Assembly (NCBI RefSeq): GCF_030013595.1
Contig: NZ_CP122768.1
Source: Escherichia coli
Lineage (GTDB): Bacteria > Pseudomonadota > Gammaproteobacteria > Enterobacterales > Enterobacteriaceae
Length of the DNA stretch: 64,000 bases
Strand: one strand, 5' to 3'
Made by a program: the position numbers. Shown here in pieces: positions 44,101 through 47,100 of this stretch. Position 1 is the first letter of the stretch; every line of letters begins with the position of its first letter.

Positions 44101-47100
44101 AGTTTCTCGCCAGCTGCTGGGTAATGGTACTCGCCCCTTGTGACGCGTGGCCGGAGAACAGCGCCACACTTGCCGCACGGAAGATCCCCACCGGGTCAAC
44201 GCCGTGATGCTCGTAGAAGCGGCTGTCTTCCGTCGCGATAAAGGCTTTCACCATCTCCGGCGGGATTTGATCCAACGTAACCGGAATACGACGTTTCTCA
44301 CCGTATTGAGCAATCAGCTCGCCATCGGCGCTGTAAATCTGCATCGGAATTTGCAGGCGAACATCTTTTAATGTCGCCACATCCGGCAGTTGTGGCTCGA
44401 TGTAGCGGTATAGGCCATAAATCGAGCCTGCTCCCAGCAGAATGCAACAGACTGCAAGGATCAAAAAATACTTTACGAACTTCACTGGAAATTTCCCATT
44501 TAGTTTCATTTGGGCAGTTTATAAACAAACGCGCGGTAGTATAAAGGCAAGCCAGACGCATTGATATACCCGTCAGAGTGACGGGTGATAAGGAGATCAT
44601 CACAATGGCATTTAAGATCTGGCAAATTGGTTTGCATTTACAACAGCAAGAAGCGGTAGCGGTTGCTATCGTGCGGGGCGCAAAAGAATGCTTTTTGCAA
44701 CGCTGGTGGCGGTTGCCGCTGGCGCACGACATTATCAAAGATGGGCGGATTGTTGATGCGCAGCGGCTGGCTAAAACGTTGTTACCGTGGAGTCGCGAAC
44801 TGCCGCAGCGTCATCACATTATGTTGGCGTTTCCCGCCAGTCGCACATTACAGCGGTCATTTCCACGCCCGTCGATGTCCCTTGGTGAGCGGGAGCAAAC
44901 GGCCTGGCTGTCCGGGACGATGGCCCGCGAGCTGGATATGGATCCGGACTCCCTGCGCTTCGATTACAGCGAAGACTCACTCAGTCCCGCCTATAACGTG
45001 ACTGCCGCGCAAAGCAAAGAGTTGGCAACGCTGCTTACTCTGGCAGAAAGGTTGCGTGTTCATGTTAGCGCGATCACCCCGGATGCCAGTGCATTACAGC
45101 GATTCCTGCCTTTTTTACCTTCTCATCAGCAATGTCTGGCCTGGCGTGATAACGAACAGTGGCTGTGGGCGACGCGCTATAGCTGGGGGCGCAAACTGGC
45201 GGTGGGGATAACTAGCGCGAAGGAGCTGGCGGCAGCGTTATCCGTTGATCCCGAAAGCGTCGCGATATGTGGCGAAGGCGGATTTGACCCCTAGGAGGCG
45301 GTTTCTGTTCGTCAGCCGCCGCTACCGCCGCCAGGTGGAGACTTTGCCATCGCGCTGGGGCTGGCGCTTGGGAAGGTGTACTGATGAACCCGCCAATTAA
45401 TTTTTTGCCCTGGCGACAGCAACGCCGGACCGCTTTTCTTCGTTTCTGGTTGCTGATGTTCGTTGCGCCTCTGCTGCTGGCTGTCGGGATAACGCTAATA
45501 CTGCGTCTGACAAGCAACGCCGAAGCACGCGTAGACACCGTTTTGCTTCAGGCGGAACAACAACTCGCCCGCAGCTTACAGATAACGAAACCACGTTTGC
45601 TGGAACGCCAGCAGTTACGCGAACAGCGTTTGCAAAGGCAGCGCCAGCGACAATTTACCCGTGACTGGCAATCTGCGCTGGAAGCACTGGCGGCGCTTTT
45701 ACCGGAACATGCCTGGCTGACAACGATAAGCTGGCAGCAGGGAACGCTGGAGATCAAGGGGCTGACAACAAGCATTACCGCGTTAAACGCACTAGAAACG
45801 TCACTCCGCCAGGATGCTTCTTTTCATCTCAATCAGCGGGGGGCCACGCAGCAGGATGCGCAGGGACGCTGGCAATTTGAGTATCAGTTAACAAGGAAGG
45901 TTAGCGATGGACATGCTCTTTGACTGGTGGTTCGTCGCATCACCCCGCCTCCGCCAGCTTTGCTGGGCAGTCTGGTTGCTGGTGTTAGTTACGCTCATTT
46001 TTCTGTCATCGACACACCAGGAAGAGAGCGACGCATTAATTCGACTACGGGCGAGTCATCACCAGCAGTGGGCCGCACTGTATCGCCTGGTAGACACCAC
46101 TCCCTTCAGCGAGGAAAAAACGCTGCCCTTTTCGCCACTGGATTTTCAGTTATCCGGCACGCAACTGGTTTACTGGCATCCATCCGCGCAGGGAGGTGAG
46201 TTGGCGTTGAAAACGCTGTGGGAAGCAGTGCCATCGGCATTTACACGGCTGGCAGAGCGCAACGTCAGCGTGAGCCGTTTTTCGTTAAGCGTGGAAGGTG
46301 ATGACCTTTTGTTCACGCTACAACTGGAGACGCCGCATGAGGGTTAAACGCTGGTTGTTGGCAGGTATTGCATTGTGCCTTTTAACCGGTATGCGTGACC
46401 CTTTTAAACCGCCGGAAGATCTATGCCGGATTAGCGAACTTAGCCAGTGGCGCTATCAGGGGATAGTAGGGCGAGGCGAGCGCATCATCGGTGTAATAAA
46501 AGACGGGCAAAAGAAATGGCGACGGGTGCAGCAAAACGATGTGCTGGAAAACGGTTGGACAATTTTACAGCTGACGCCAGACGCACTAACGCTGGGAACC
46601 GGGACAAACTGCGAACCGCCACACTGGTTGTGGCAACGGCAAGGAGATACAAATGAAGCAATGGATAGCCGCACTACTGTTGATGCTTATACCCGGCGTA
46701 CAGGCGGCAAAGCCGCAAAAAGTGACGCTGATGGTGGATGACGTTCCGGTAGCTCAGGTGTTGCAGGCGCTGGCTGAACAGGAGAAGTTGAACCTGGTCG
46801 TGTCGCCAGACGTCAGCGGTACGGTGTCGTTACATCTAACAGATGTTCCCTGGAAGCAGGCACTACAAACTGTAGTAAAAAGCGCCGGACTGATAACGCG
46901 GCAGGAAGGCAACATTCTCTCGGTGCATTCCGTTGCCTGGCAGAATGACAATATCGCCCGTCAGGAGGCGGAGCAGGCGCGGGCGCAGGCAAATCTGCCG
47001 CTGGAAAATCGCAATATTACTCTGCAATACGCCGACGCCGGAGAGCTGGCGAAAGCGGGGGAGAAGCTACTGAGTGCCAAAGGGAGTATGACCGTCGATA

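Follow-up and report, generated by a model that had tools for sequence, protein, structure and literature searches.

An amber codon at Trp230 of hofM: a probable lineage-specific nonsense allele in Escherichia coli

Does the hofM gene of this E. coli strain, which ends at a TAG after 229 codons, encode a complete protein, or has a longer gene been cut short, and what would this mean for the operon that it heads? The initial annotation of the window, by which we mean the whole stretch of 64,000 nucleotides analysed here, took the TAG for a recent nonsense mutation, plausibly of TGG, or for a sequencing error, and added that it could be polar on hofNOPQ. The analysis makes it highly probable that hofM W230* is a nonsense allele (G to A at 45293) that is real, inherited and specific to one lineage, with deamination at a Dcm site as its likeliest origin and with a product that is probably non-functional. 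The features of the reading frame are the following.

44605..45294, plus strand: truncated hofM coding sequence, 229 codons and an amber stop, from the ORF listing and its translation; the product equals STE04340.1 / UniRef A0A376HHG2.
45292..45294, plus strand: premature amber codon TAG, ancestrally TGG (Trp230); sole difference in 823 bp from NZ_CM149870.1.
45293..45298, plus strand: AGGAGG hexamer created by the mutation and probably inert, read from the sequence.
45295..45384, plus strand: relic hofM 3' end, now untranslated, with 29 intact sense codons and the original TGA; identical to the intact allele.
45382..45386, plus strand: TGATG stop/start overlap of hofM and hofN, from the sequence and from comparison with K-12 and other species.

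The ATG at 44605 is in frame with the TAG at 45292-45294, 687 nt or 229 codons further on. Past the TAG the frame reads EAVSVRQPPLPPPGGDFAIALGLALGKVY, 29 sense codons that lead up to a TGA (45382-45384) whose final A also opens the hofN ATG (45384-45386), all of which is as the initial annotation had described it. Since the chance of a 29-codon open run in random sequence is (61/64)^29, or about 0.25, the run is unremarkable on its own; what is decisive is its identity to the intact gene of a relative. The complete genome closest to the window is NZ_CM149870.1 (strain HCP5S3_I2, pig faeces, UK). Over 823 bp spanning hofM the two are one base apart, a G in the relative and an A in the window at 45293, and each of the 90 nt after the TAG is the same as in the relative's intact hofM. 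Restoring TGG yields a product of 259 amino acids identical to WP_112024359.1 of that genome. The same length was found in K-12 MG1655, whose hofM spans 780 bp (259 amino acids) and likewise shares one nucleotide between its stop and the hofN start; the length of 259 amino acids that the initial annotation gave for K-12 HofM and the change of TGG to TAG that it proposed are both borne out. The window thus has a stop in frame at a codon that is sense in the orthologs, and the frame downstream is still recognisable. Over the full 64 kb, about 21 substitutions, 5 small indels and one IS insertion separate the window from NZ_CM149870.1, so that the two are closely related without belonging to a single clone; hofN, hofO, hofP and hofQ of the window are intact and identical to those of this genome.

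The position of the substitution points to how it may have arisen. Dcm methylates the internal cytosine of CCWGG on both strands, and the ancestral sequence around Trp230 was such a site, a point that had escaped the initial annotation.

45290..45294, no strand assigned: ancestral Dcm site CCTGG, now CCTAG, read from the sequence together with site statistics.

G45293 pairs with the internal C of the minus-strand CCAGG, the Dcm target position, and its change to A corresponds to C to T at that cytosine. Only 338 of the 64,000 positions in the window pair in this way at Dcm sites (0.53%, or 1.0% of the G/C positions), and among the 21 substitutions that separate the window from the nearest genome 45293 is the only one to fall at such a position. 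Because the mutated G pairs with a Dcm-target cytosine, W230* would be explained by deamination of 5-methylcytosine: the minus-strand methylated base at CCTGG/CCAGG would have been deaminated and the T:G mismatch would have escaped very-short-patch repair, giving G to A at 45293. Deamination of 5-methylcytosine leaves a T:G mismatch that becomes fixed if Vsr very-short-patch repair misses it (PMC2715241). Judged from the sequence context, deamination at the Dcm site is the somewhat favoured cause, a G to A change being possible without methylation as well. W230* also offers a tidy natural case of a transition that makes an amber codon at a Dcm site.

What kind of protein has been truncated? 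An AlphaFold model of HofM computed from an alignment of orthologs (pLDDT 86, pTM 0.82) has the two-domain actin-like (ASKHA) fold and resembles solved PilM. In a Foldseek search with this model the top nine matches are all PilM chains (E 6e-13 to 5e-11, probability 1.0), the best being 5EOY and 5EOU of P. aeruginosa and 2YCH of T. thermophilus; the cytoplasmic domain of GspL/EpsL follows, and then FtsA. Family models of PilM do not recognise HofM. TIGR01175 (pilM) scores 15.9 bits, below its cut-off of 133, and in Pfam PF11104 (PilM_2) is not matched, the only hit being T2SSL, whose 17.5 bits fall short of the cut-off of 25.5. A single-sequence search of the PDB with HofM gave no match. A HofM family profile run against PDB sequences gave two matches only, both to PilM. 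It aligns residues 225-257 of HofM, NPWEAVAV...EFAVALGLALRG, with residues 335-372 of 2YCH, DPWEAVSV...DFAIALGLALGK, at an E value of only about 1; this pairing of C-terminal motifs is weak when taken alone and is in line with the structural match. HofM forms a branch that has diverged and become shorter, and it owes its name to NCBI's own HofM naming and not to TIGR01175 or PF11104.

The genomic context agrees with this assignment. The window has the canonical E. coli order, with mrcA divergent, then hofM-hofN-hofO-hofP-hofQ, aroK and aroB, and Pfam places PilN, HofO, HofP and Secretin on the four open reading frames after hofM.

45370..45376, plus strand: Shine-Dalgarno-like GGGAAGG of hofN, 7 nt before its ATG, read from the sequence.
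45384..45923, plus strand: hofN, intact, 179 amino acids, PilN family (Pfam PilN, 38 bits).
45907..46347, plus strand: hofO, intact, 146 amino acids (Pfam HofO, 88 bits).
46337..46741, plus strand: hofP, intact, 134 amino acids (Pfam HofP, 259 bits).
46653..47891, plus strand: hofQ, secretin, intact, 412 amino acids (Pfam Secretin, Secretin_N and STN).

The gene order of hofM, the pilN/O/P-like genes and a secretin gene is the same in six other genera. PilM binds a conserved N-terminal cytoplasmic peptide of PilN, of the INLLPWR type. HofN begins with MNPPINFLPWRQQRR (MNPPINFLPWR), so that the predicted PilM-binding peptide of the INxLPWR type is present.

The W230* product retains 88% of HofM and lacks the last 30 of its 259 residues. 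In an alignment of 84 full-length orthologs (48-100% identity; Escherichia, Salmonella, Citrobacter, Kosakonia, Yokenella and others) these 30 residues are conserved like the remainder of the protein, with a mean column majority of 0.68 against 0.70. Two motifs stand out, R236-Q-P-P-x-P241 (RQPPxP) and F247-A-[IV]-A-[LI]-G-L-A-[LM]-G256. A250, L253 and A254 never vary, and conservation reaches 90% or more at R236, P238, P239, P241, G252 and G256; position 230 itself is W in 79% and L or F in 17% of the orthologs. In K-12 and six other Enterobacteriaceae HofM measures 259-261 amino acids and its stop overlaps the hofN start. By DSSP the deleted part of the AlphaFold model comprises a helix at 229-232, a short strand and a helix at 248-255. 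Actin-like (ASKHA) domains order their elements as beta-beta-beta-alpha-beta-alpha-beta-alpha, and set against this topology the DSSP order suggests that the deletion takes away the last three core elements of the second subdomain. The amber at 230 replaces the Trp of the PW-x-AV motif and removes the terminal FAxAxGLAL helix, both of which HofM has in common with PilM. Given the motifs and structural elements that are removed, loss of function of HofM(1-229) is likely; the fragment would probably be misfolded or non-functional, and assembly of the pilus and DNA-uptake machinery would be disabled when the operon is induced.

A question remains, could the stop be an artefact, or could it be real and harmless? 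An error in sequencing or assembly, with TGG in the true genome, would fit a difference of a single base and the rarity of the allele among finished genomes. We searched 5,426 complete RefSeq E. coli genomes by megablast with 31-mers centred on the variant base, which seed an alignment only when the central base matches; the TAG version was found in none of them and the TGG version in 1,535, and a 71-mer around the amber site had no perfect match in the same set. This comparison with other E. coli hofM genes, which the initial annotation had suggested, points to TGG as the ancestral codon. Against an error, the exact protein of 229 amino acids is already public (NCBI STE04340.1 / UniRef100 A0A376HHG2, under the name 'pilus assembly protein') and occurs on about 50 contigs in NCBI and Logan, in 71 index blocks, the longest contig measuring 3.43 Mb. 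Likewise, the Logan assembly of an independent run, SRR19716081, matches the window at 100% identity across 20,690 bp, a stretch in which both the TAG and the other SNPs private to the window lie. The base quality of the window also looks good, as gntT and a fimbrial chaperone gene are intact in it and annotated as frameshifted in the nearest 'complete' genome. With W230* reproduced in a deposited protein and in an independent assembly, an error, the alternative named in the initial annotation, is effectively excluded and has next to no probability. The absence of TAG from complete genomes indicates instead that the allele is confined to one sub-lineage, sampled mostly as draft or short-read assemblies. 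A real but neutral polymorphism, with HofM(1-229) still functional or with enough readthrough of the TAG, is also improbable. In its favour are the 88% of the protein that remains and the fact that HofM is already a minimised PilM (259 against about 354 amino acids), in a family that bears some variation in size. Opposed to it are the invariant and near-invariant positions and the PilM-like motifs among the residues removed, and the retention of the tail in all 84 full-length orthologs. The tail could hardly be supplied as a separate fragment, as the only in-frame start that it holds is a GTG at codon 258. Amber suppressors seldom occur in nature, and a search of the 64-kb window for a suppressor tRNA returned zero tRNA genes. 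Two further ways around the stop were rejected. Programmed readthrough or recoding was discarded on the grounds that the TAG is not conserved, being found in 0 of 5,426 complete genomes, and that all orthologs have a sense codon there; re-initiation from the new AGGAGG was discarded as no ATG, GTG or TTG follows it within 4-12 nt.

Accepting hofM W230* as a probable loss-of-function allele, two larger consequences have to be weighed, silencing of the genes downstream and a selective advantage of the loss. Strong polarity would mean that hofNOPQ are effectively silenced by Rho-dependent termination, by lost translational coupling or by both, and we consider it unlikely. The overlap of the hofM stop with the hofN start does speak for coupling: it is kept across genera, at 1 nt in E. 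albertii, E. fergusonii, Salmonella, Citrobacter and Kosakonia and at 4 nt in Yokenella, so that some termination-reinitiation coupling is plausible and would be lost in W230*. In addition, the minimum-energy fold of the E. coli sequence pairs 45307-45315 with the hofN start region in a stem of 9+5 bp. We nevertheless rejected the idea that the hofN start is sequestered by a conserved RNA stem, since the stability of this stem is no better than that of shuffled sequence (z = -0.42) and, across eight junctions of seven species, 59.8% of cells are paired against 58.5% in shuffles, with 179 of 500 shuffles reaching 59.8%. W230* leaves only 89 nt free of ribosomes, a poor rut site for the loading of Rho since G (34) outnumbers C (25) there, and hofN has a Shine-Dalgarno of its own, of the GGAG type and 7-11 nt ahead of the start in all eight aligned junctions of the seven species. 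Polarity is weakest when the nonsense codon lies near the next initiation site. We therefore keep from the initial annotation the possibility of a polar effect, and find its strong form unsupported; weak polarity is expected from the sequence, in that expression of hofN to hofQ would be affected only mildly, through the coupling lost at TGATG. As to selection, inactivation of hofM is a recurrent event among natural E. coli. Public assemblies hold W188* (187 amino acids) on 60 contigs, Q176* (175 amino acids) on 38 and L212* (211 amino acids) on 5, as well as frameshifted products of 201 amino acids on 81 and 29 contigs. In each of these other nonsense alleles the codon after the last residue can be turned into a stop by a single change, which is not so for the 'partial' HofM proteins seen on single contigs, probably contig ends. 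HofM-HofN fusions created by frameshift are also found in public assemblies, and one of them breaks after residue 229, in a run of C adjoining the amber site. Several recurrent and independent nulls could suggest that loss of hofM is adaptive, as relief from the cost of pilus and DNA uptake or as escape of a phage or immune target, and not neutral decay; such an advantage would account for the spread of the allele within a clone and for the repeated hits on hofM. This too we hold to be improbable: contig counts reflect the sampling of clones and are not tests of selection, 5,424 of the 5,426 complete genomes retain at least 80% of the hofM region, HofM orthologs are conserved across genera, and mutants in com homologs reportedly suffer fitness costs. 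More doubtful still is a bolder version, in which inactivation would fall preferentially on hofM, convergently and perhaps adaptively, and the Trp codons of hofM at Dcm sites (three of the ten lie inside CCTGG, W101, W180 and W230) would act as built-in 'fuses' through which the DNA-uptake/pilus machine is easily lost; if true, it would imply lineage-specific selection to switch off the cryptic competence system of E. coli.

Is the loss of hofM, as ordinary decay, of any consequence to the cell? HofM is encoded by the first gene of hofMNOPQ, an operon under Sxy/CRP-S control that would supply the inner-membrane alignment complex and the secretin of a cryptic type IV pilus and DNA-uptake machine. 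Mutants in com homologs are said to be unable to use DNA as a nutrient and to lose competitions in stationary phase. The operon headed by hofM, formerly named yrfD, has two weak CRP-S sites; it is induced about 16-fold by Sxy and is otherwise poorly or undetectably transcribed (PMC1635313). A scan of 44250-44610 for CRP-S sites (TGCGAN6TCGCA, at most 2 mismatches) found nothing; the published sites of the yrfD operon lie further into mrcA (PMC1635313). Further down the operon, hofQ is needed for Sxy-dependent DNA uptake (PMC3330819) and contributes to the persistence of UPEC in the kidney (PMC2649431), and the gene set for assembly of a PpdD-type pilus in E. coli includes hofMNOPQ (bioRxiv 10.1101/856302). 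A hofM null would matter only for Sxy-induced DNA uptake, the use of DNA as nutrient, PpdD pilus assembly, competition in stationary phase or persistence in the kidney. W230* is the ordinary decay of a conditionally expressed, non-essential gene, an event of a kind already known and of little significance beyond annotation. In practice, hofM of this strain should be annotated as a pseudogene and not as a 'pilus assembly protein' of 229 amino acids, the strain and its clone should be treated as probable hofM nulls, and W230* can be used as a marker SNP for its lineage.

The allele can be set beside four known systems. The first is HofM of E. coli K-12 (YrfD, b3395), the first gene of hofMNOPQ, which has the same locus, gene order and hofN overlap and an intact product of 259 amino acids; its codon 230 is TGG, whereas that of the window is TAG and ends the product at 229. 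Other natural hofM nulls of E. coli and Shigella are premature stops and frameshifts in the same gene, found on tens of contigs; they lie at 176, 188 and 212, with frameshifts near 158-172, and among the recurrent alleles W230* lies closest to the C-terminus. With PilM of type IVa pili (P. aeruginosa 5EOU/5EOY, T. thermophilus 2YCH, M. xanthus 3JC8) HofM has in common the actin-like fold (Foldseek E about 1e-12) and the C-terminal motifs PWxAV...FAxAxGLAL; the hof operon is also alike in its PilN/HofN partner with an INxLPWR-type motif and in its context of a PilN-like gene, HofO, HofP and secretin. HofM differs from type IVa PilM in being about 95 residues shorter, at 11-14% identity, and far below the TIGR01175 and Pfam thresholds. 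Finally, amber hotspots at Dcm sites (CCWGG, countered by Vsr), which in lacI reportedly lie at CCAGG, involve the same change, C to T at the internal cytosine, here on the minus strand and giving CTAGG in hofM; the lacI hotspot ambers derive from CAG, whereas the amber of hofM derives from a TGG on the coding strand.

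Inactivation of hofM has occurred repeatedly in natural E. coli. In the public collections, the null allele W188* is carried by 60 contigs, Q176* by 38 and L212* by 5, and a 201-aa frameshift product of the gene is found in 81 and 29 contigs.

The G-to-A change that creates the amber codon in hofM also produces a CTAG tetranucleotide and generates a new, perfect Shine-Dalgarno hexamer, AGGAGG, at 45293-45298. Judged by its sequence context, this hexamer is probably inert, because no canonical start codon was found 4-12 nt 3' of it; the sole candidate nearby is a CTG at 45305, which lies in a different frame. 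Further along the operon, the 3' end of hofP and the 5' end of hofQ share 89 nt (46653-46741), an overlap also annotated in K-12 and in RefSeq. The true start of hofQ is uncertain, as the gene caller applied to the Logan contig, an independent assembly of read run SRR19716081, begins hofQ 10 codons later, yielding a product of 402 aa rather than 412 aa.

Two genes are intact in the window, although the annotation of NZ_CM149870.1, the closest complete genome, lists both as frameshifted pseudogenes:

532-1335, plus strand: fimbrial chaperone, intact ORF of 267 aa
18577-19893, minus strand: gntT, intact ORF of 438 aa

The two sequences differ here by small indels, one of them within a G-run, and the frameshifts are probably errors of the NZ_CM149870.1 assembly. 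Close to the end of a fimbrial operon lies a match to a small RNA:

2858-2900, plus strand: ES036 (CssrF) sRNA, Rfam match of 43.6 bits (gathering score 37.6)

Between envZ and pckA the window carries an IS200 insertion of roughly 710 bp (32132-32836), which the closest complete genome lacks. It holds two features:

32235-32690, minus strand: tnpA ORF, Pfam Y1_Tnp, 126 bits
32703-32826, minus strand: STnc490, Rfam match of 146 bits

In some public assemblies, frameshifts give rise to HofM-HofN fusion ORFs, represented by the public proteins P0038 and P0087, for which the matching window positions are 45288-45291 and about 45360. One fusion, of 438 aa and with 45 member sequences, breaks directly after residue 229, within the C-run adjoining the amber site. 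These ORFs may be assembly errors. In joining a PilM-like and a PilN-like part in a single chain, the fusions resemble GspL.
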